DNA from: Candidatus Nanoarchaeia archaeon | GTDB taxonomy: Archaea > Nanobdellota > Nanobdellia > CSSed11-243R1 | Reading direction: 5' to 3' | Assembly: GCA_028713895.1 (NCBI GenBank) | Contig: JAQTNH010000001.1 | Span: 758,610-822,609 of the forward strand | DNA: 64,000 bases | Part shown: positions 9,076 through 64,000 of the stretch, piece by piece | How the letters are laid out: the number at the start of each line of letters is the position of its first letter | Position numbering within the stretch: the first letter of the stretch is position 1 | The notes under the pieces: model-generated | The model's input: only the letters and a program-made list of their open reading frames with translations | What the model was told of the DNA's origin: nothing | Database searches by the model: none | Program-made: the position numbers and the translations under genes

Positions 9076-10585
9076 TTATCCTTTGACAACGCCAATGGGC
9101 TTCAGCCTTGCGACAAGGTTTCCGATTCCTGCTTCGTGCGAGACTCTTGCAACCTCGTCAATGTCCTTGTAAGCACCAGGAGCCTCCTCTACGATTCCCA
9201 TCTTTGATGCCGCCTTTATTATAATTCCGCGGTCTCCGAGCTCCTTGACTATTGTGTCTGCGCGATAGCTTCGGATTGCTTCTCCGCGGCTCATCATTCT
9301 TCCTGCGCCATGAGCAGTGCTTCCGAATGTTTTTTCCATTGCAGTTTCGCTGCCAACAAGAACATATGATGCTGTTCCCATGCTGCCCGGAATAAGAACC
9401 GGCTGCCCGACTGAACGATAGTCGCTTGGAATCTCTGGCCTGCCTGGACCAAATGAACGGGTTGCGCCCTTTCGGTGCACGTAAACCTTTCGGAGTTTGC
9501 CATCAATCTTGTGCTCCTCAACTTTTGCAAGATTGTGCGCAACATCATAGACAACCTGCATATCCAGGTCTTCCCAGCTTTTTCCAAGGGCTTCTTCAAA
9601 TGCCTGTCGTGACCAGTGAAGAATCATCTGGCGGTTGCACCATGCAAAGTTTGCTGCTGCGCTCATTGCCTTGAGATACCTTTCGGCTATGTCGCTGCCT
9701 GCTGGCGCATAAATTAATTCGCGGTCAGGAAGTTTTGCAATTATATCTGGATAAGCTTTTTCCATCTCGCGTATGTAATCGCTGCAGACCTGATGCCCGA
9801 TTCCCCTACTGCCTGTGTGAATCATCAGTGTGACCTGGCCTTCCTCAAGCCCGAATGCTTTTGCAACTTTTTTGTCAAAGATTTTTTCAACATACTGGAT
9901 TTCAAGAAAATGATTGCCTGAGCCAAGGCTTCCAAGTTGCGGCATTCCGCGCTTCTTTGCCTCTGGGCTCACATATTTTGGGTCAGCGACTTTTATGCAG
10001 CCCTCTTCCTCAAGGTGCTTCAAATCCTGTTCAGTGCCAAATCCGTGTTCAACTGCCCATCGCGCTCCAAGCTTCAGGACATTGTCGAACTCTTCCTGAG
10101 TCTGCACCTTTGTTTTTCCCTTGCTTCCTAATCCGCTTGGAACATTGCGGAAAAGAGCTTCAAGAAGCGGATGTATATTTTCTTCTGCCTGCTTTTTGAC
10201 AAGGTTAGTTCTAACTAGTCTCACACCGCAGTTTATATCATCTTAGGGGACATAGTTTTCCTATAATCCAATCCTATGCCGCCGGGTGAGATACCCCCTT
10301 CCTTGAAATCCAAAGCTGCAACGCCGCCAATTGGGAACCCGTCTAAGGTCCGATTTTCATTGGAAATCCTTCGTGCCCATCTGGCAGGGTTATTGCGTAC
10401 TTATAGATTCCAGGCAAAGTGGCTACTCCAGCGCATTGAGTTAAGGTCCGGTCCTGTTTCATCTTTTCCAGAAGATTCTGGGAAGCAAAGACGCGTCCGG
10501 GAACGTTCATGTTCGGAATTGTTCCGACAGGAATTTCCCACTCAGTGTCGTTGATTTTATTCAGTGTTACATTGCTGGCATTCAT
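9076..10585 (-). CDS. rtcB: RNA-splicing ligase RtcB; coding sequence interrupted by two BHB-type mini-introns (exons 10585..10366, 10342..10271, 10241..9076; spliced product 485 aa)
   Basis: ORF track gives two fragments in different frames (10343..10585 ending ...LPDGHEGFPMKIGP*; 9076..10224 starting inside ...GVRLVRTNL). Removing 23 nt and 29 nt joins them in frame and recreates [14 protein letters not shown] and [15 protein letters not shown]. The C-terminal part has RtcB-like GSRGIGHQ, VAHN, HRKGATR, GSMGTASY and HGAGR blocks. Confidence 0.85.
10242..10270 (-). other. BHB mini-intron 2 of rtcB (29 nt, phase 1, inside a Tyr codon U|AU)
   Basis: mRNA sense: GGCA-UAGG-AU|U-GGAU(U)AUAG-GAAAA-CUAU-GUCC-CCUA-AG|A-UGAU. 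4-bp central helix UAGG/CCUA, identical bulges AUU and AGA, inner stem-loop closed by GAAAA. Confidence 0.8.
10343..10365 (-). other. BHB mini-intron 1 of rtcB (23 nt, phase 1, inside a Tyr codon U|AC)
   Basis: mRNA sense: CACG-AAGG-AU|U-UCC-AAUGAAAAUC-GGA-CCUU-AG|A-CGGG. 4-bp central helix AAGG/CCUU flanked by 3-nt bulges AUU and AGA, inner helix UCC/GGA, outer helix CG/CG; contains the in-frame TAG that ends the 80-aa ORF. Confidence 0.8.
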
Positions 10586-11717
10586 TTAAGCTCCAAATAA
10601 TTTCATTGCCTTTTCTTTGTCGTCTAACATAATCTAATTTTTCTAATCCTTTTATTCTTTTCCCTCTTTTGGTATAACCTGATAAATGGTAAGTTATGAG
10701 CTTTGGAGTTATATCCAACTTTTTTGCCAATTCCTTTGTCGAATGTTGTCCGTTGCCCAATTCTTTCAATATTTGATTTTTAGTTACCCCTTTAGGTCTG
10801 TGATTCCAATTACGTTCTTTTATACTTAAATAAAACTCCAAATCTGCGCTCTTTTTGTTATTGGTAAAACCTATATTTTCTTTGAAATATTTAAACGCGA
10901 AAGGTGATATCCCAAAAGAGTGTTCAATTCTTTGGTCCCTGCTTCTTGTATAAGTCGAACTCAATTTTATTTTTGGATGGTGAAGCTCAATAAGTTTCTT
11001 TAAATCGTTTAACAGTTTAAAGTTAGCAGAATAAGTACGAATTCCAGAATGTCCGATACTTCCTTCATCATCTATAAATGCCCTAATTGCGAGAGTTGAA
11101 AATTTTTTAGGCAACTCAAACAGTCTTTTTGGCAACCTTCCATTAAATGTTCCAAATTTTAGTTTGTATAACTTGGATATTGTATAACAGATACATTTAG
11201 GGAAAATTATTGAAGTTGGCGTTTTTGTAATTTCAACATCTCCAAAACATCGTTTGATATAATAAGCAAATTCATCTAATTGTTTTTCATTGTAGCTTCT
11301 GTAATAATTTGTATTATTCGGGAGTCCTGAGCCATCACATAATATATGTGTTATTAAACCAAAAAGTTCAGGAGTTTCTTTGAGAGGAAGAACTGGACTA
11401 TTAAATTTGTTGCCTGCACCGATTGTTTTGTATGAAACAATATTCTTTTCCAGTCCATTAATTTTAATCTTGTAATACCTTGTTAATGTTAAGACGTTTA
11501 ACAAAGGGATATACTGTTTTCCTTTTCTCCATGGGCCCATTGATTTGCCCCTATCGCAAGTTCCGGTTAGCCATCTGGATACTGTACTGGGGCTTTTGTT
11601 TGTCAGAGAACATACCAATCTTTTGTTACACAGAATTTTATTTCTGAGCTTCTTGTTTAATAGAACACAAATCTTTGATTGCGGGAATTCAGAAATATGA
11701 AATGATTTTATGCTCAT
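10557..11717 (-). CDS. free-standing LAGLIDADG-family homing-endonuclease-like protein with N-terminal HTH and C-terminal winged-helix regions
   Basis: 386-aa ORF with two dodecapeptide motifs (LFGLITHILCDGSG and LAIRAFIDDEGSIG), HTH-like SPSTVSRWLTG and wHTH-like STKELAKKLDITPKLITYHL; its 3' end overlaps the rtcB start by 29 nt. Confidence 0.75.
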   Translation of the reverse strand: MSIKSFHISEFPQSKICVLLNKKLRNKILCNKRLVCSLTNKSPSTVSRWLTGTCDRGKSMGPWRKGKQYIPLLNVLTLTRYYKIKINGLEKNIVSYKTIGAGNKFNSPVLPLKETPELFGLITHILCDGSGLPNNTNYYRSYNEKQLDEFAYYIKRCFGDVEITKTPTSIIFPKCICYTISKLYKLKFGTFNGRLPKRLFELPKKFSTLAIRAFIDDEGSIGHSGIRTYSANFKLLNDLKKLIELHHPKIKLSSTYTRSRDQRIEHSFGISPFAFKYFKENIGFTNNKKSADLEFYLSIKERNWNHRPKGVTKNQILKELGNGQHSTKELAKKLDITPKLITYHLSGYTKRGKRIKGLEKLDYVRRQRKGNEIIWSLNECQQCNTE

Positions 11718-41329: not shown

Positions 41330-41372
41330 TAGATATCTATTTAAATTTCTTTTCTTTCAGCCCTTTAGAAAA

Positions 41373-41523
41373 GCGCTGGCGGAAAGATGCTTCGCAATCA
41401 GCCCTTAAACCTTTCTTGCAAAGAAAGCCTTGGGAAAGAAGCGCTGGCGGAAAGATGCTTCGCAATCAGCCCTTAAGCCTTTCTTGCAAAGAAAGCCTTG
41501 GGAAAGAAGCGCTGGCGGAAAGA
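41373..41523 (+). repeat. 68-nt direct tandem repeat, 2.2 copies, upstream of tRNA-Pro
   Basis: Units 41373..41440 and 41441..41508 differ at 1 of 68 nt (GCGCTGGCGGAAAGATGCTTCGCAATCAGCCCTTAA[A/G]CCTTTCTTGCAAAGAAAGCCTTGGGAAAGAA); partial third unit to 41523; a degenerate relative continues to 41597. Confidence 0.85.
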
Positions 41524-41597
41524 TTATTAAAAGGTAATATCTTTCGTTCCCTCAAGCCCTTCTTGCGAAGAAGCGCTTGCGGAAGAACTAAGCTGTT

Positions 41598-49672: not shown

Positions 49673-49789
49673 TGTGGAGGAGGGGATTCGCACCCCCGAT
49701 CTCCGCGTTACCCAGTAATCTCATGAGCTTTGCCAGTTTGACATCTCTGTCAAAACTTGCGGCATTCTACTAGGCTAAACTACCTCCAC
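49673..49789 (-). tRNA. tRNA-Met(CAU) (or CAU-type tRNA-Ile2) with two BHB introns (30/31 and 37/38), unusual A18/G55
   Basis: Hand-folded. Exons 49789..49759, 49728..49722, 49708..49673 (74 nt); introns 49758..49729 (30 nt; central UGCC/GGCA, bulges GC|A and AA|G) and 49721..49709 (13 nt; central CUCA/UGGG, bulges UG|A and UA|A). Mature GTGGAGG-TA-GTTT-AGCCTAGTA-GAAT-G-CCGCG-CTCATGA-CGCGG-AGATC-GGGGG-TGCGAAT-CCCCT-CCTCCAC-A. 74+43=117 nt matches the span. Confidence 0.8.
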
Positions 49790-50026: not shown

Positions 50027-50485
<459 letters not shown>

Positions 50486-50489
50486 TTAT

Positions 50490-50523
50490 TGGACTAGGAG
50501 GGATTCGAACCCTCAGCCTCCCA
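50490..50523 (-). other. orphan tRNA 3'-half-like sequence (positions ~40-73 of a second Ala-type tRNA)
   Basis: TGGG-AGGCT-GAGGG-TTCGAAT-CCCTC-CTAGTCC-A, 9 nt downstream of tRNA-Ala. Shares GGGAGGCT with tRNA-Ala, but the T stem and acceptor strand differ by compensatory changes; retains U70; no matching 5' half (GG[G/A]CTAG) seen in this window. Confidence 0.5.
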
Positions 50524-50532
50524 ATATATAAA

Positions 50533-50654
50533 TGGACCCGCCGGGATTCGAACCCGGAGCCTCCCGCATTTTGGTATCTAACGCCCTCCGCAAAATTTTC
50601 TTTTTTGCAAAAGAAATGTTTTAAGCGGACGCGATGCCGTTTCGCCACGGGCCC
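50533..50654 (-). tRNA. tRNA-Ala(GGC) with two BHB introns (33/34 and 37/38) separated by a 4-nt micro-exon
   Basis: Hand-folded. Exons 50654..50623, 50585..50582 (GGCG), 50568..50533 (72 nt); introns 50622..50586 (37 nt; central CCGC/GCGG, bulges UU|A and AG|G) and 50581..50569 (13 nt; central UUGG/CCAA, bulges CG|U and AA|U). Mature GGGCCCG-TG-GCGA-AACGGCA-TCGC-G-TCCGC-TTGGCGT-GCGGG-AGGCT-CCGGG-TTCGAAT-CCCGG-CGGGTCC-A with the Ala identity pair G3.U70. 72+50=122 nt matches the span. Confidence 0.85.
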
Positions 50655-51967
50655 TCCTTGAATTCATCCAAACACCAATACATCTTGTCGACGTATCTAT
50701 TTGCAAGTTCTATATCTGTTTGGGTTGCGTGTTTGTCCTTTTCTAATAGGACACCAACTACTTTTAAATCTTTATTTATCATTTCTTTAACCATAAAACC
50801 ATATCCTATTAACTCCTTGAATCCCTTTTTTGAAAAAAAGTATACTGTATCCTCAGAACTTTCATCTGAAACAAAATAAGTCTCATATTTAGTTTTAAGT
50901 AATTTCTTTCCGAGTAATTTCACTTTTTCTTTCAAAATGTCTCTTATAATATTCTCGCTTTCAATGAAATCTTTATTTGATTCGCATTGAGCATTTGCTT
51001 TTGAACGGATACTATTCGACTTTAGTTCTGTGTTCAAACAATTATCAATTTGAATAAAATCTGTTTTATTGTTACAGATTAATTCATGTTTTATATCCAT
51101 AAACTTGGTATTATTCAAAATTATTGGCACGATTCCTGTATCAAGTAAATATTTTGCAATTTCAAGCTGCATTCTCTTTGGAGTTTTCCAATTTTGGTTT
51201 TGGATTTCAAAGCTTATCAAAAGAGGAACATTTAGCTTAATTCTGCTTAGTTTACGCTTTATCCTTGCGATGTCATAATACATTGCGCTCTTTTTCTTTT
51301 TTAGACCAACAACTTCTTCCAGTGCAACGATTTTATTATTTTTGTAATAAACAAAATCTATATTGCATCCATTAATTTGTTTATGAACCTCAAAAGTTAT
51401 GCCTTTTAACGTTTCATTTTGTTTTTTAACCTTTAATTCAAGGCGGTTTAGTTCTGCATGTTCTGCGCCTTTATTGCCTAACTTGCTATAATAATCTGCA
51501 CCATACCTTTTCAGTAAGGTTTGTTTTGATTTAGCATGTATTTCTTTGTTAGTTTTGAAGAATTTCAAGAGATTATACCATTTCTGTCTTTGTAATCTGC
51601 TATACTCTTTAGGACTTTTTGTTTTCATCTCATGATGCCATCTTTTAATTCCTGCAATCCTTTTTTGAAGCGCATCACTATTCCCTTCTTTAATCTTTTG
51701 ATTAGTAATCATGGCGCCTTTAGAAGCGCCCCAGTTATGGTTTAACAGAATTCCACTATTAATGTATAATTCTGCTTCATCTTTCGGGAAATTAGTTAAG
51801 AGATACTCTGGGAGTGTTTGTTCTCCTCTTGCCCATCCTTTAAGGGTATTGTAGTTAATATTCAACTTGACTGAAAGTTCTTTTAGTGATTTTGAATTAG
51901 TATACTGTTTTAAGTTGATAAAGAGTTTTTTGTTAATCTCTTTGTTAAGCATTAATCTTTTTTCCAT
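50621..51967 (-). CDS. HTH-containing hypothetical protein, possible endonuclease-like core
   Basis: 448-aa ORF; N-terminal HTH-like SLKELSVKLNINYNTLKGWARGE (similar in style to the LAGLIDADG protein N-terminus); mid-region NIDFVYYKNNKIVALEEVVGLKKK resembles a PD-(D/E)xK/Vsr-like core (weak). The last 11 codons (GPWRNGIASA*) are read from the 5' part of tRNA-Ala. Confidence 0.5.
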   Translation of the reverse strand: MEKRLMLNKEINKKLFINLKQYTNSKSLKELSVKLNINYNTLKGWARGEQTLPEYLLTNFPKDEAELYINSGILLNHNWGASKGAMITNQKIKEGNSDALQKRIAGIKRWHHEMKTKSPKEYSRLQRQKWYNLLKFFKTNKEIHAKSKQTLLKRYGADYYSKLGNKGAEHAELNRLELKVKKQNETLKGITFEVHKQINGCNIDFVYYKNNKIVALEEVVGLKKKKSAMYYDIARIKRKLSRIKLNVPLLISFEIQNQNWKTPKRMQLEIAKYLLDTGIVPIILNNTKFMDIKHELICNNKTDFIQIDNCLNTELKSNSIRSKANAQCESNKDFIESENIIRDILKEKVKLLGKKLLKTKYETYFVSDESSEDTVYFFSKKGFKELIGYGFMVKEMINKDLKVVGVLLEKDKHATQTDIELANRYVDKMYWCLDEFKEGPWRNGIASA

Positions 51968-52070
51968 TTTAAATCACCGAGCCGACTGGGGCGAAAGCGC
52001 TTTACGAAGTTTTCGGTTTCACCGAAAGCTCGATAAAGCAAGCTGAGCCAGGCTCACAGGTGATTTAAAA
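51967..52070 (+). other. long-stem structured element with canonical BHB geometry on the + strand (putative 73-nt excisable segment 51985..52057)
   Basis: 12-bp helix TTTTAAATCACC/GGTGATTTAAAA, 4-bp helix GAGC/GCTC, 3-nt bulges CG|A and AC|A on opposite strands, inner helix CTGG/CCAG, three internal hairpins. On the minus-strand mRNA the same helix pairs the GGTGAT SD and abuts the ATG of the 448-aa ORF. Confidence 0.45.
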
Positions 52071-52096
52071 GAAATAATACTATATGGGTTTGTCGG

Positions 52097-52122
52097 GGTG
52101 TTGTCCAGTATGTCCAGTAATC
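52097..52122. promoter_or_regulatory. conserved 26-nt element, copy 2 (GGTGTTGTCCAGTATGTCCAGTAATC)
   Basis: 26/26 identical to copy 1; 130 nt upstream of the 448-aa ORF ATG (minus), followed in minus sense by CATATAGTATTATTT; 37 nt upstream of the + gene ATG at 52159. Confidence 0.5.
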
Positions 52123-52158
52123 CTAATATTTTTATGCTTACGCTGCATGTATCTTAGC

Positions 52159-53897: not shown

Positions 53898-54022
53898 TGG
53901 CCCCGGAGGGATTTGAACCCTCGACCCACTGATTAAGAGTATCAACCGCGCCTTTCTTCCGCAAACGCTTCTTTGGAAAGAAGGGCTTTGTCAGTTGCTC
54001 TGCCAGGCTGAGCTACGAGGCC
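53898..54022 (-). tRNA. tRNA-Lys(CUU) with one 51-nt BHB intron at non-canonical position 30/31
   Basis: Exons 54022..53992 and 53940..53898 (74 nt); intron 53991..53941. Central helix CAAC/GUUG, bulges UG|A and AU|A, outer helix GAG/CUC. Mature GGCCTCG-TA-GCTC-AGCCTGGCA-GAGC-A-ACTGA-CTCTTAA-TCAGT-GGGTC-GAGGG-TTCAAAT-CCCTC-CGGGGCC-A. 74+51=125 nt matches the span. Confidence 0.85.
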
Positions 54023-58722: not shown

Positions 58723-61700
58723 TTAGTCTTTTTCTATTATTGCCCTAAGCCTGGGTATGCCTGCATTCGGGTCAATCTTGTCAACAATCAGCTTGAAATC
58801 CTGCGTCTCCTTTATCCTGATAGGCATCTCCCATTTGTATGTTTTTGTTGTTTTGCCTTTCCTGTAAGCCTTTACTGTGCTCATGGGCTTTCTTGAAAGA
58901 TTAGACACTTTTATCCTGTTTGAGTCAAATGTGTACTCCAAAAGGACTTTTTTAAGATTTACAAGCCCGACATTCTGCACCCTAAACTCAACTGAACTGC
59001 TTTCCCCAACCAGCCCGATTATACTTTCTTTTATCCTGATTGGGCACAATGACTTGTACAGCAGGAATAAGAGAGGCGTGATTGCGAGCATCAGCAGGAA
59101 CGTGAGCAGGTCAAAGCGCGCTCCAAGAACCTTTATGACAATCGGCTTTGCAAATACGCTGAGCTCAATTGAACCGCTGTCAAGCTGGGTTCCATTGTAT
59201 GATGCTGATGCTGCGAAGCTGTACTTGTCCTGCTTGAGGGTTGAGAGCGCTGACTTTGTAGTAAACTCTTTTTGTTCGCCAATGTATAACGTTGTATTGA
59301 AGGATTCAAGCAGATATTCTTTTGACTTGCCTGCAAGACTTACCGAGACTAATAATGAATCTGAGGTGAAATTAAAGTTTCCGTCATTCAGCACAACTGT
59401 CTTGAAGGTTGCGGTTTCATTTGTGTAATAGCTGCTTTTGTCAGAGCTTATGTTTGCTATCCCTGCTGATTTGCACCAGTCCATCAGTGAGGACAGCTTT
59501 GCAGATGCTATTGTGCTGTTCCATTTGTCCATCAGTGTTATTGAGTAATTGTAGACTCCATATCCATCGCTGCAGTCAACTGCGGGGTTAAGGTATTTAA
59601 TCCAGGACATCGAGGCTGTTCCATTCGCTATGAACAGATAATCGTCAGTGAGCTGCCTGTAAAGCGTTCCGTCAGGGCTGCTAAGGTTTACAAACAAATA
59701 CATCTCTTTTTCGCTTCCGCCTGTGTTGCTGTAATTGAATGCGACAAATGCGGGCTCGCCTGGCGTGAAAACTTCAGGCACGACAAATTGGACTGCTGGC
59801 GCTGGTGCGCCTCCAGCCCCTCCTGGTGCAGACGGACCTGACGGGCCTGGACTGGGTGTCGGCGTGACTCCCTCGCACATGTCCCCGACTCCGTCACTGT
59901 CGCTGTCAGACTGGTTGCTGTTCTTTACAGCAGGGCAGTTGTCGCACATGTCACCGACTCCGTCCCAGTCAGAATCGCTCTGGTTTGCATTTGAAATGCC
60001 TGGGCAGTTGTCGCAGGTGAAATTATACGGCGAATGGAATGCGGACAAATACCCCTCGGTTGCATTGTCGCTGTCAAAGTCTGCCCACTCGCAAGTCCAT
60101 CCTGTGCCTGATGAGCTAAGATTATCGCACATAAAGAAAACTTTCCTGTCCGAAACAACGCTGTATCCGCTTGCATCGGTTGCATTTATCGTGACATAGT
60201 ACATGCCGTCAAGAGCAGGAACATTTGTGGGTATGTCAATTTCAGACTGGCATGTTATCCTATTGCTTGAAACACTGCCTGTGAATCCTGTTGTGTAGAC
60301 TGTCCCGGTTGAATTTGAAATTATAAATGTGCATGTTGAACCCCAACTTCTTCCTGTTGCTGTAAGGAAAGAACTGTTTACATTTACTGCATCAAAGTCC
60401 TGCCTGCTGAACTTTGGAGCTATTTCGTTCATGTAATCCTGTTTTGGAAGTATGTTTATGCTGAACACAGGATTCACATAGAATGTGCTGTTGTAATTGT
60501 CTGCGCCGTCCTCTGCAGTTGCATTCACGCTGAATGATGCCACGTCTGCATAAATCGGGCCGACAGCAAGCACACAGTCAGACTCAAGGCTGCTTCCTCC
60601 TGTATACCTGAAATCGCATGAACACACTCCAGAAGAGTCATTGCCTGGTATTGCCCTGAACTGCATTGATTCGCCGTAAGTGAGATTCACTGCTGAACTG
60701 CTGGGCTCATACTCAATCTCAGTCACATTTGTTGTTATGTTCTCGTAGACTTTTGTGTTTATGTTTGCGTTTCCCTGCCCGTGCTGGGTTTGTGTCAGCA
60801 CAGGGAATGAAAAGTTCAGATATGTTGCTGGCAGGGTATCCAGTTGTGCAGGTATTGTGACTTTGAGATTCACGCTTGTAACTGTCGTGTTGTTCTCCAG
60901 AATCAGGACGCTGTTATTGAATGTCTTTTCGAAACTTCCTGCAGACGCGCCGCTGAGCGTTATTTCTGCTGCAGTAACATTGAACGGGATTGGCGAAGTC
61001 GGGTACTGCCCAATCACGAATATCAAATCGCTTCCTGTTATAGCCTGCAGATTTGTGAATGTGATTGTGAAATTGCCAGGGAACAGGTGCTCTGCTGAAG
61101 TATAGTTTATCTGAATGTCATTTGCTGAGCCGAGCGTGGCTGTTGTGTATGCTGGAAGAGACAGGCATGATGCCTCGGTCCAGTCCTTTGCATGACAGGA
61201 GCCGACACTGTAACAGCCTGAATCAATGCAATCCATTGAGCTGTCTGCGTCATTATCATAATTGTCATTGCAGCTTGTTTCTCCAGACGGCTGGCAGGTG
61301 CCAGAGTATCCTGAAACAACAGGCCCTGTGTTTCCATTGCAGTCTGAATCCGCGCAGTCGATTCCTCCCTGCGCGTCATTGTCAAAGCTGTCATTGCAAG
61401 TGGATTCAGTTGTAAGCTCGCATTTCTGGCTGCTTGTTGTCGAGCCAATCATTCCGTTGCAATCGCTGTCGCTGCAGTCAGTTCCGCCTGTGCCTCCGAT
61501 AAGGTATGCGCCGCTGCTGTCATAGTCATCATTTGCACTGTTTGCGCAGCTGTTCCATGTGTTGTTTTCCCAGGTCGGGCAGGGCCCGCACCACTCGAAC
61601 GCTGCAAAGCAGTCTGTGTTTGAAATGTACGCGTTTGAATAAGAATTGTTCCTGTCCATGCAGTCCTGTCCGCCGTTTGTGCTGGCAGAATCAACATCAT

Positions 61701-64000
61701 CATCCATTGAGTTTGAGCATAACATATACTCTGTTGAATTGAATTCTGTGCTTGCGCATATGCTCCCGGCATAAGCCACTCCAAGGCAGTCCGGGTCTTC
61801 GCAGTCAATGCCTGTGCTTGTGTTGAGCGTGTAATTTGTTCCGCTCCAGTAATATGCATCCAAGTCATTGTCTATGCTGTCAAAGCACGATGCGTTGTTT
61901 ATGTATTCGTTTGTCGGGCATGAGCCTGAACCTGCGCAATCATAATCATCGCAGTCAGCCCCGCTTGAATCATAATTCGGGTCAGGGATGAAAATGTTTT
62001 TCCAGTTTGCCTGGCTGCCCTGCAGCTCCTTGTCATAGTCATTGTCAAATCCATCTGCGCAGTTTGCTTCGAACTGGGCGCATATGCCTGAACTGGTTCC
62101 GCTTCTTGCCCAGCAGGAATATTCATCATAGCAGTCTATCTCCCTTGAGTCGCAGGTTGAGTTGTCTGTGCAGGCGTAATTTGTATAGCCGTCGCCTGTT
62201 GCATCATTGTCAAACAAATCATTGCAGCTGCTTGGCGCTGATGAATAATTTGCTGCGCCTTCAATTGATTCGCAGTACAATGCAGTGCCGCCTGAGTTAT
62301 ACTTCACAGGAGCTGAGCCAGAAAGATACGCCCCTATCCTGCCTGCGCAGTTGGGGTCTTTGCAGTCAACAAGCCCGTCCATGTCATTGTCAAACCCGTC
62401 CCAGCAGGTTGTTTCAGCCGCGTACTCGCAGCGTATCGCATCGCTGGTGACTGCTGTGACCCCTATTTGTATTCCGTTGCAATCAGAATCATTGCAGTCA
62501 TAGCTGTCATAGTTCAAGTCATTGTCTATGCCGTCATTGCATGACTGGCTTGTGGTTTTCTGCGTGCCTGTTATGAATGTTGTTGTGGTGTGCTGAAGCC
62601 GCGAGTCATTTTCATAAATGTTTTCAGGCGCTGTCGCGTCAACATAAATCGTGAAGTTGTGGTCAACAACTGCTGTGCTTCCCACGCCTATGTTCAGGTT
62701 CATGAGATATGAAACATTGTTTATGTTCTGCAGGCTCTCGTTCATTCCCATCTGAAGGTTTCCTGAGAAACCTGTCGTGTCGCTTCCGCTTGCGCGCGAG
62801 GAGCCTGATAAATAATAATAAGGGGCTGTGTCAGGGCCGAGCCACTTGTATGCAAGCGGATTCGGGCCGTAAAGCGAAGTTGTTGCGTTTGAGATATTGA
62901 ATGCTGTTGCCGTGATATTTTTTACAGTAACAAGAACAATATCATTTGTCGCAAAGCTGCGCTCGACTTTTACCTTGAGCTGCCCTGTCTTGTTTATTGT
63001 CTGGGTGTACCATACTGTTGCGCCGCTGTCAGTGAAGTTGCAGATGTTGCCTGTGCAATTTGTTCCGGGAAGCTCCATTGTCCCGATTTCAGAGAAAGTC
63101 CCGAATGTTGCGCCGCGGTTTATTGCGTGCCCGCAGCCCGGGAAAAATATTGTCTGGCAATCAGGGTCAGCGCAGTCAGTTAATCCGTCTGCATCATTGT
63201 CAGTCCCGTCATCGCAGATTCCCTCAAAGAAATGTATCCCGCTGTATTTGTAAACTGAAAATGAGATGTCCCTGTCATCCGCATCATTGTGGCTGAAATA
63301 CATCCGTATGCCTGTTGTCTTTGCAGCATAAGCATTTGCAGCGTCCTTTGCTTTCAGCACCCCGCTGTCATTGTAATACCAATTGTCGGTCTTGGCATAT
63401 ATGGGCGCTGATGTGTTGCTGGTTAAAATCCAGACTCCGCTGCTGTCATACAGGCTGCAGTTTGCAACATACCATGTTGTTTCATATGCCCCGCTGTTGT
63501 TTTCCAATGCGCTGTCCGGGATTGTGTATGAAAAGTTGTATGAATTTGGAGGGGATACTGCCGGTGTTATATTATTAACAGGGATTACAGTCCCGTTTCT
63601 TTGTACAATCGAGCAGTTGAGCGAATAGCCCGGGCCTGCTGAAAGATTCGGGAATATTATGTAAGTTGTGTTAAGAGTTAGTGGTTTTGAATATATCCCT
63701 GTTGTCTCGTAAACTCCCTCTGCAGTCGTGTAATTCATTGTCGGAGGCGCAACTGTTGCTGTGTTGCTTGAGTTATACCAGCCTGTTGCATTTTCTTCGC
63801 CGTCATTTGGCAGCTGCGAGCAGTTGTATTCCTCGCCCATGCCTGCGCCGATTTCAGTCAGGTTAAGAGTCTGGTTAGTGCCGACTATGGACGGAGTCCC
63901 GGTCACATTCCACCAGCGCCAGTAATTGTTGGCGTTGCTGTCGCTGTCTGCATCCGAATAGGTGCCGTTGTCGCAGTTTATTATGTCGGTTGACTGCGGA
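58723..64000 (-). CDS. giant Cys/Asp-repeat surface protein (>1758 aa; N-terminus lies beyond the right window edge), C-terminal TM anchor
   Basis: ORF track 58723..63906; the frame stays open to 64000 (…[29 protein letters not shown]…). At least 10 repeats of the type C.D..DND.DG..DC.D.DC, thrombospondin-type-3-like [15 protein letters not shown] x2, [18 protein letters not shown] linker, many N-x-S/T sequons, [20 protein letters not shown] near the C-terminus. Confidence 0.8.

Follow-up and report, generated by a model that had tools for sequence, protein, structure and literature searches.

A tRNA-Ala(GGC) gene with two anticodon-loop introns, a four-nucleotide exon and a predicted order of splicing in a Nanoarchaeia genome

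Introduction

How could a tRNA be produced from a gene whose anticodon lies on an exon of four nucleotides, placed between two introns of one anticodon loop? This question is raised by a locus in the DNA analysed here, a 64,000-nt stretch of a Nanoarchaeia genome that is called the window below. Contigs of GCA_028713185.1 match the window with 100% identity, and identical DNA of this genome is present in run SRR22315509. Kaneta et al. (2018) connected increased tRNA disruption in DPANN lineages with EndAs that carry the L3 loop, and the incomplete tRNA sets of such genomes were taken to point to undetected disrupted genes (PMC5829648).

A first-pass annotation had read the locus as a tRNA-Ala(GGC) gene in which an apparent anticodon stem is a decoy and the second splicing motif is completed only by removal of the first intron. 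Its statements about the sequence were all borne out, with the gene placed on the minus strand. The stretch 50533-50654 is confirmed as a real tRNA-Ala gene interrupted by two introns. A functional tRNA-Ala(GGC) would very probably be made from it by EndA and RtcB, with the two anticodon-loop introns removed in a fixed order.

Materials and methods

BHB motifs were enumerated with the criterion of a 4-bp central helix flanked by bulges of 3 nt, with the cut in each bulge placed behind the second base. These criteria are lenient and yield about 5.5 chance motifs per 300 nt. Therefore, three observations carry the weight of the analysis: the excision path is unique, the product matches that of uninterrupted relatives, and the motif boundaries coincide with indel boundaries. 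Relatives of the tRNA-Ala body were collected by a metagenome scan with its 5' 24-mer. Loci used for comparison carry the letter L.

Results and discussion

The tRNA-Ala(GGC) gene

The minus strand from 50654 to 50533 reads as a 122-nt pre-tRNA-Ala(GGC) gene. The Rfam tRNA model RF00005 matches exactly this stretch with 49.6 bits against a gathering score of 29, and the alignment covers model positions 1-71 with a 53-nt insert in the anticodon loop. The 5' part of the RNA is GGGCCCG-UG-GCGA-AACGGCA-UCGC-G-UCCGC-UU-[37 nt]-GGCG-[13 nt], and its 3' part is U-GCGGG-AGGCU-CCGGG-UUCGAAU-CCCGG-CGGGUCC-A. The parts of the gene are as follows.

50533-50654, minus strand: pre-tRNA-Ala(GGC), 122 nt (RF00005, 49.6 bits; G3.U70 and A73)
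50623-50654, minus strand: exon 1, tRNA positions 1-33, ending in ...UCCGC-UU (BHB enumeration; identical in L121)
50586-50622, minus strand: intron 1, 37 nt, at 33/34, AAAACAUUUCUUUUGCAAAAAAGAAAAUUUUGCGGAG (strict hBHBh' motif, present in the MFE fold)
50588-50591, minus strand: GCGG, the 3' strand of the BHB 1 central helix and decoy partner of the anticodon-stem CCGC (pair probability about 0.66)
50582-50585, minus strand: micro-exon GGCG, positions 34-37, that is, anticodon GGC and G37 (BHB enumeration; contiguous with U33 and U38 in L124 and L133)
50569-50581, minus strand: intron 2, 13 nt, at the canonical 37/38, UUAGAUACCAAAA (relaxed hBH/BHL motif, complete only once intron 1 is removed)
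50533-50568, minus strand: exon 3, positions 38-73, U-GCGGG-AGGCU-T arm-CGGGUCC-A (RF00005 and BHB enumeration)

The acceptor stem is GGGCCCG/CGGGUCC. The alanine identity pair G3.U70, which the first-pass annotation had cited as independent support, is seen directly in it, and A73 can be read likewise. The D stem is GCGA/UCGC and the T arm is CCGGG-UUCGAAU-CCCGG. Once both introns are excised, the alanine identity is completed by an NGC anticodon and U33 in the 7-nt loop UUGGCGU, and the predicted spliced tRNA has 72 nt. Intron 1 contains an internal 8-bp hairpin in addition to the GCGG decoy strand. The CCAA of intron 2 pairs with U32, U33, G34 and G35.

ARAGORN missed the tRNA-Ala(GGC) and called a chimeric Ser(cga) at 50490-50584. 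This Ser/Leu call is spurious, being a fusion of the 3' part of tRNA-Ala with an orphan 3' half that lies downstream.

Upstream of the gene lies a 1.47-kb segment of low GC content (50655-52124, about 35%). It carries a 448-aa ORF whose stop codon is at the exon 1/intron 1 junction of tRNA-Ala. The segment separates tRNA-Ala from DNA that in L121 is located 14 nt upstream of the tRNA, in a promoter-proximal position. From the comparison of the two sequences, it would be either an insertion here or a deletion in L121. No TATA-like box is obvious by eye in the 45 nt upstream of tRNA-Ala. The 448-aa ORF had no informative match in Pfam, NCBIfam or PHROGs, and it is absent among the genes listed for GCA_028713185.1. 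Another large reading frame of the window is the ORF at 58723-63906 (minus strand), with 1727 aa inside the window. L158 lists a 2798-aa product for it, with no Pfam match.

BHB motifs and the excision path

The best strict hBHBh' motif of the primary transcript, BHB 1, surrounds intron 1. Its central helix CCGC/GCGG consists of four G-C pairs and its bulges are UU|A and AG|G. The outer helix has 4 bp (U27.G35, G26-C36, C25-G37 and G24.U) and the inner helix has three A-U pairs. The apparent anticodon stem is thus the central helix of a BHB round a 37-nt intron at 33/34, just as the first-pass annotation had claimed. With intron 1 removed, BHB 2 is found with the central helix UUGG/CCAA, bulges CG|U and AA|U, the outer 5-bp stem UCCGC/GCGGG and one inner pair, and it belongs to the relaxed hBH/BHL class. 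In the unspliced RNA its central helix has two of four pairs and is physically split by the 37 nt of intron 1. Therefore, ordered removal is likely. In the minimum-energy fold of the 85-nt intermediate, the UUGG/CCAA helix is present with four of four pairs, together with the AAU bulge and the 5-bp stem. The earlier claim that the motif of the 13-nt intron at 37/38 is completed by the first excision is upheld by this gain from two to four pairs.

The BHB enumeration of the real insert gave exactly one excision path of at most two steps, 37 nt and then 13 nt, which leads to the loop UUGGCGU. Mononucleotide shuffling of the 57-nt insert was repeated 5000 times. A path of any kind was obtained in 165 shuffles, a path with U33 in 65, and a path with both U33 and an NGC anticodon in one. 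Single-intron models of tRNA-Ala were unsupported by any BHB. An alternative BHB register at 31/71 yielded no usable loop.

Positions 35-36 could in principle be taken by any of three GC dinucleotides in the insert, and other splice sites might then give another anticodon. For example, UGC could be taken from ...UUUUGCGG... with introns of 30 nt and 20 nt, or from the hairpin loop of UUUUGCAAAA. This possibility is extremely improbable, as the enumeration gives the 37 + 13 path only and no BHB exists for any alternative. A UGC anticodon would give the 37/38 intron the central helix UUUG/CCAA, in which a U faces a C, and separate tRNA-Ala(UGC) genes with the loop CUUGCAC are present in relatives. 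The GGC reading is retained below.

Comparison with relatives

The strongest support for the gene model comes from comparison with relatives. In the tRNA-Ala(GGC) genes of L124 and L133, the anticodon arm TCCGC-TTGGCGT-GCGGG is contiguous in the DNA. The true stem TCCGC/GCGGG and the mature loop UUGGCGU, both predicted by the first-pass annotation, are therefore found uninterrupted in these two genes, and the loop is also the product of the sole enumerated BHB path. Instead of the two anticodon-loop introns, the two genes have an HBh'-type intron of 24 or 26 nt at 45/46. Their spliced tRNAs differ from the predicted 72-nt tRNA-Ala at two positions in L124 (70/72 identical) and at one position in L133 (71/72). 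A scan of genome contigs with the 3' 23-mer listed mostly intronless tRNA-Ala matches from many archaea. Among these listed matches, the loop UUGGCGU was also seen in the intronless tRNA-Ala(GGC) of an unrelated archaeon (L049).

The same 122-nt two-intron layout is found in L121, with identical exon 1, micro-exon and intron 2. Of the 50 intron bases 49 are identical, and the single substitution in intron 1 lies outside the helices. A G43 to A change in L121 turns U27.G43 into the Watson-Crick pair U27-A43. L121 is not a near-clone: identity is 81% for its flanking 80-aa protein and about 80% for the DNA of that gene. Since the introns are nearly identical although the flanking gene is at about 80%, they are either constrained or recently shared with L121. 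Either way, the two-intron architecture is no assembly artefact. The exact architecture was found in one independent sequence (L121), and for this reason no covariation statistic is given.

A decaying pseudogene was considered as another explanation, namely an Ala tRNA disrupted by two insertions with fortuitous BHB-like pairings. Its promoter-proximal DNA would have been displaced by the 1.47-kb insertion, the gene is unrecognised by ARAGORN, and lenient BHB motifs are frequent by chance at the rate given above. Nevertheless, this explanation is very unlikely. The two-step path to a perfect 7-nt Ala loop is unique and was matched by one of the 5000 shuffles. The exons are intact and the product is nearly the same as that of L133. 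In addition, L121 keeps the architecture with introns that are 98% identical, against about 80% for the neighbouring gene, and further tRNAs of the window are built likewise. The preferred reading therefore stays that of a functional gene.

Four relatives (L122, L128, L147 and L148) carry intronless tRNA-Ala(UGC) genes. In three others (L144, L145 and L150), the anticodon loop of tRNA-Ala(UGC) is interrupted at the same place by an insert of about 45 nt. It was confirmed as a 37/38 intron by the BHB criteria in L144 and L150, and three of four central pairs were counted by eye in L145. The Ala(GGC) and Ala(UGC) genes of this clade thus show a rapid turnover of introns between close relatives.

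The order of splicing

For the understanding of the splicing order, the folds of the precursor were compared. Of the intron 1 motif, the inner helix and the decoy central helix are both present in the minimum-energy fold of the primary transcript. In the ensemble, the probability of the decoy helix is about 0.66 and that of the true anticodon stem is about 0.02. Compared with the decoy form, a cloverleaf that has the true stem loses only about 1.3 kcal/mol in stability, so the modelled preference for the decoy form is not absolute. Imposing BHB 2 on the unspliced RNA carries an energy cost of about 8 kcal/mol. In view of the dominance of the decoy helix, this cost and the fold of BHB 2 after the first splice, sequential removal of 37 nt and then 13 nt would be the most likely route. 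The fixed order through a decoy helix, as proposed in the first-pass annotation, thus gains support in silico from the two probabilities, the energy cost and the split helix.

The following mechanism is proposed. At first, the 5' strand of the anticodon stem, CCGC, would pair with the GCGG of the 37-nt intron and form a strict BHB that exposes UU|A and AG|G. Both bulges would be cut by EndA, and U33 and G34 would be joined by RtcB. Second, U32, U33, G34 and G35, now contiguous, would pair with the CCAA of the 13-nt intron. With the true stem UCCGC/GCGGG beneath, a relaxed bulge-helix-loop would form at 37/38, to be cut and ligated. The product would be the 72-nt tRNA with the loop UUGGCGU. The 4-nt exon would never be free in this scheme, because it would stay covalently bound to intron 2 and exon 3 until it is joined to exon 1, and such tethering would be a consequence of the splicing order. 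We infer that the gene is expressed, that its RNA is cleaved by EndA and that the order is strict. The relaxed motif of intron 2, with one inner pair, needs an enzyme of broad specificity. No EndA gene is present in the gene lists of the 64-kb window.

An enzyme of this kind raises a further possibility, in which the gene model is right and the order is not obligatory. A broad-specificity EndA would cut intron 2 at one or both of its sites whenever the unspliced RNA passes briefly into the true anticodon stem, and both intermediates would exist. The small energy gap between the true-stem cloverleaf and the decoy form agrees with this possibility, and in Cyanidioschyzon merolae the order follows the relative stability of the BHBs rather than a strict dependence (PMC3728597). 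On the other hand, the central helix of BHB 2 is half paired and interrupted by the whole of intron 1 in the primary transcript, and enforcing the motif there is costly. Moreover, simultaneous cutting would free the 4-nt exon, and its religation is unlikely. A non-obligatory order is accordingly regarded as unlikely, and a fixed order, first intron 1 and then intron 2, is the reading that we carry forward.

Other tRNA genes and the orphan 3' half

Six tRNA-like 3' parts were revealed by a T-arm scan of the window. Besides that of tRNA-Ala, they are the following.

Pro(CGG) and Thr(UGU): intronless tRNA genes (T-arm scan)
53898-54022, minus strand: tRNA-Lys(CUU) with a 51-nt relaxed hBH intron at 30/31, intron 53941-53991 (T-arm scan and BHB motif)
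49673-49789, minus strand: tRNA(CAU), Met or Ile2, with a 30-nt intron at 30/31 (49729-49758) and a 13-nt intron at 37/38 (49709-49721) (T-arm scan and BHB motif)
50490-50524, minus strand: orphan tRNA 3' half, UUGGG-AGGCU-GAGGG-UUCGAAU-CCCUC-CUAGUCC-A (T-arm scan)

Disruption thus affects three of the five tRNA genes, and two of these have two introns. The two introns of tRNA(CAU) are separated by an exon of 7 nt, and its 13-nt intron AGAUUACUGGGUA resembles intron 2 of tRNA-Ala, UUAGAUACCAAAA. The tRNA-Lys(CUU) was missed by ARAGORN and by the Rfam tRNA model, with a weak tmRNA match only. The present analysis corrects an annotation gap that covers tRNA-Ala and two neighbours, all of them missed by ARAGORN. 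As a result of these three misses, the genome would seem to be without Ala(GGC), Lys(CUU) and a CAU tRNA.

The orphan 3' half begins 8 nt downstream of tRNA-Ala and is followed by an intron-like trailer at about 50445-50489. The 205-nt block of tRNA-Ala, the 8-nt spacer, the orphan 3' half and the trailer is conserved at about 95% in L121. Beyond this block the downstream flank has no alignment with L121, and upstream homology resumes only at the region of the 80-aa gene. At position 57 of the T loop, tRNA-Ala and the orphan half both have G in the window and A in L121. For the orphan half, no 5' partner (GGRYURG followed by a D arm; GGACUAG...) was found in the window or in any of 162 loci. 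The orphan 3' half may represent one half of a split tRNA or the remnant of an integration event.

An intron-like repeat family

Intron 1 of tRNA-Ala can be aligned with the tRNA-Lys intron, the Ala(UGC) introns found in relatives, the 45 nt after the orphan half and copies upstream of tRNA-Pro. Most members of this repeat family have a hairpin of a pyrimidine arm, a loop and a purine arm, followed by GCGYUKGCGGAA, which reads UUUGCGGA in intron 1. The overall pattern is CCUUUCUU-N3-AAGAAAG...GCGYUKGCGGAA. The GCGG decoy of intron 1 is part of this family motif. The members are located as follows.

50586-50622, minus strand: intron of tRNA-Ala at 33/34
53941-53991, minus strand: intron of tRNA-Lys at 30/31
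L144, L145 and L150: introns of tRNA-Ala(UGC) at 37/38
41357-41597, plus strand: copies outside tRNAs
50445-50489, minus strand: trailer after the orphan half, outside tRNAs

The stretch 41357-41597 holds a tandem array of a 68-nt unit in 2.3 copies, and one more copy abuts the 5' end of tRNA-Pro. Each unit is preceded by ...CAGCCC, which is like a tRNA 3' end. The copy after the orphan half is degenerate in the motif and reads GUGUUUGUGG. The Rfam scan by e-value over 40-64 kb gave no match of the repeat elements to a known family. Two scans of viral contigs found nothing. Judged from these sequences, the repeat family suggests an origin by intron transposition or from a mobile element.

A BHB with its 3' cut exactly at G1 of tRNA-Pro (41363/41598, plus strand) was also considered. 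It was rejected as a chance-level motif with three G.U outer pairs. This pairing is probably a by-product of the ...CAGCCC repeats, which are complementary to the acceptor strand.

BHB-flanked inserts in rtcB

The window encodes RtcB (about 10585-9076, minus strand) and archease (12468-12028). The rtcB ORF is split over three reading frames by two inserts, one of 23 nt (10365-10343) and one of 29 nt (10270-10242). When both are removed, the motifs HEGYGFPIGG and GGIGYDINCG are restored in a 485-aa protein, which aligns without gaps with the RtcB of P. horikoshii (E 6e-195). In the closest relative (L162, protein 96% identical), rtcB is intact and is without exactly those 23 and 29 nt. The BHBs of the two inserts have the central helices AAGG/CCUU and UAGG/CCUA, and both have the bulges AU|U and AG|A. 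Both inserts can be regarded as candidate BHB introns, carried by the mRNA of the very ligase that would have to splice them. As of 2020, cbf5 of Crenarchaeota had the only reported ORF-internal BHB intron (PMC7714728).

A 386-aa ORF with a C-terminal HTH (10557-11717, minus strand) lies between a 75-aa gene and rtcB, and it is absent from the syntenic L162. It is the second ORF-sized indel that adjoins a splicing-related gene, and it shows no similarity to the 448-aa ORF.

Behind the two-intron tRNA-Ala there may be a wider process in this Nanoarchaeia lineage, an ongoing spread of intron-like elements bounded by BHBs, of which the gene would be one symptom. These elements would include the tRNA introns of the repeat family, the extragenic copies near fragments of tRNA 3' ends and the rtcB inserts. 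We hold this reading tentatively, as somewhat doubtful. If it is true, the nested layout goes back to the insertion of a family member into a tRNA in which the 13-nt canonical intron typical of the lineage was already in place. For the study of intron gain in archaea, this wider context of intron turnover, repeat family and BHB inserts inside rtcB weighs more than the single gene.

Comparison with known systems

Nested tRNA introns are already known from other archaea, and few such genes have been described in the lineage of this tRNA-Ala. Several reports describe nested multi-intron pre-tRNAs of Thermoproteales in which splicing of the other introns must precede the formation of the last BHB (PMC3728597, PMC4033280, PMC4390854, PMC8450103). 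For an obligatory order through nested BHBs, PMC3728597 cites Sugahara 2008 and Tocchini-Valentini 2009. The intron search of tRNAscan-SE 2.0 is iterated for the nested-intron case (PMC8450103). As in these pre-tRNAs, which have two or three close BHB introns, a strict hBHBh' motif is mixed with a relaxed BHL motif, and EndA and a ligase are involved; the splicing is predicted in our case. The Thermoproteales are hyperthermophilic crenarchaea, whereas the host here is a mesophilic-looking DPANN Nanoarchaeia MAG. Also unlike those genes, both introns lie in the 7-nt anticodon loop with a 4-nt exon between them, and the first BHB borrows a strand of the anticodon stem.

The first-pass annotation had placed a 4-nt exon at the extreme of what is reported. 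A literature search on micro-exons brought up nothing relevant, and the nearest short-exon case found is the tRNA-Pro(GGG) of ARMAN-2 (Micrarchaeota), with introns at 53/54 and 59/60 and an exon of 6 nt. The tRNA-Cys of ARMAN-2 has a 13-nt hBH intron, which is cleaved by its epsilon2 EndA. Like ARMAN-2, the genome here belongs to DPANN and has numerous non-canonical introns, a pair of introns separated by a few nucleotides and a 13-nt intron with a relaxed motif. In contrast, the ARMAN-2 intron pair is placed in the T loop, both motifs are drawn as strict BHBs, and no mutual dependence is described in the text available for this pair. These ARMAN-2 features are all taken from one report (PMC3239211).

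Variants I and II of the tRNA-Thr(GGU) of Caldiarchaeum subterraneum are a further parallel, where the same tRNA of related genomes has different intron complements and where a tRNA fragment and a mobile-element-like insert adjoin the gene (PMC3293823). However, the introns there, at 24/25 and 45/46, lie far from each other and do not depend on one another (PMC3293823). Ordered removal of BHB introns also occurs in the multi-intron tRNAs of C. merolae, where it was demonstrated by RT-PCR (PMC3728597). That organism is a eukaryote and its BHBs fold independently, which its authors contrast with the nested archaeal case (PMC3728597).

The gene offers a compact 122-nt substrate for the handling by EndA of a BHB that borrows a stem strand and of a 4-nt exon. 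With the precedents of Thermoproteales, tRNAscan-SE 2.0 and ARMAN-2, the architecture of tRNA-Ala belongs to a known kind. Nested, order-dependent tRNA splicing would thereby be extended, as a prediction, from Thermoproteales to a DPANN class.
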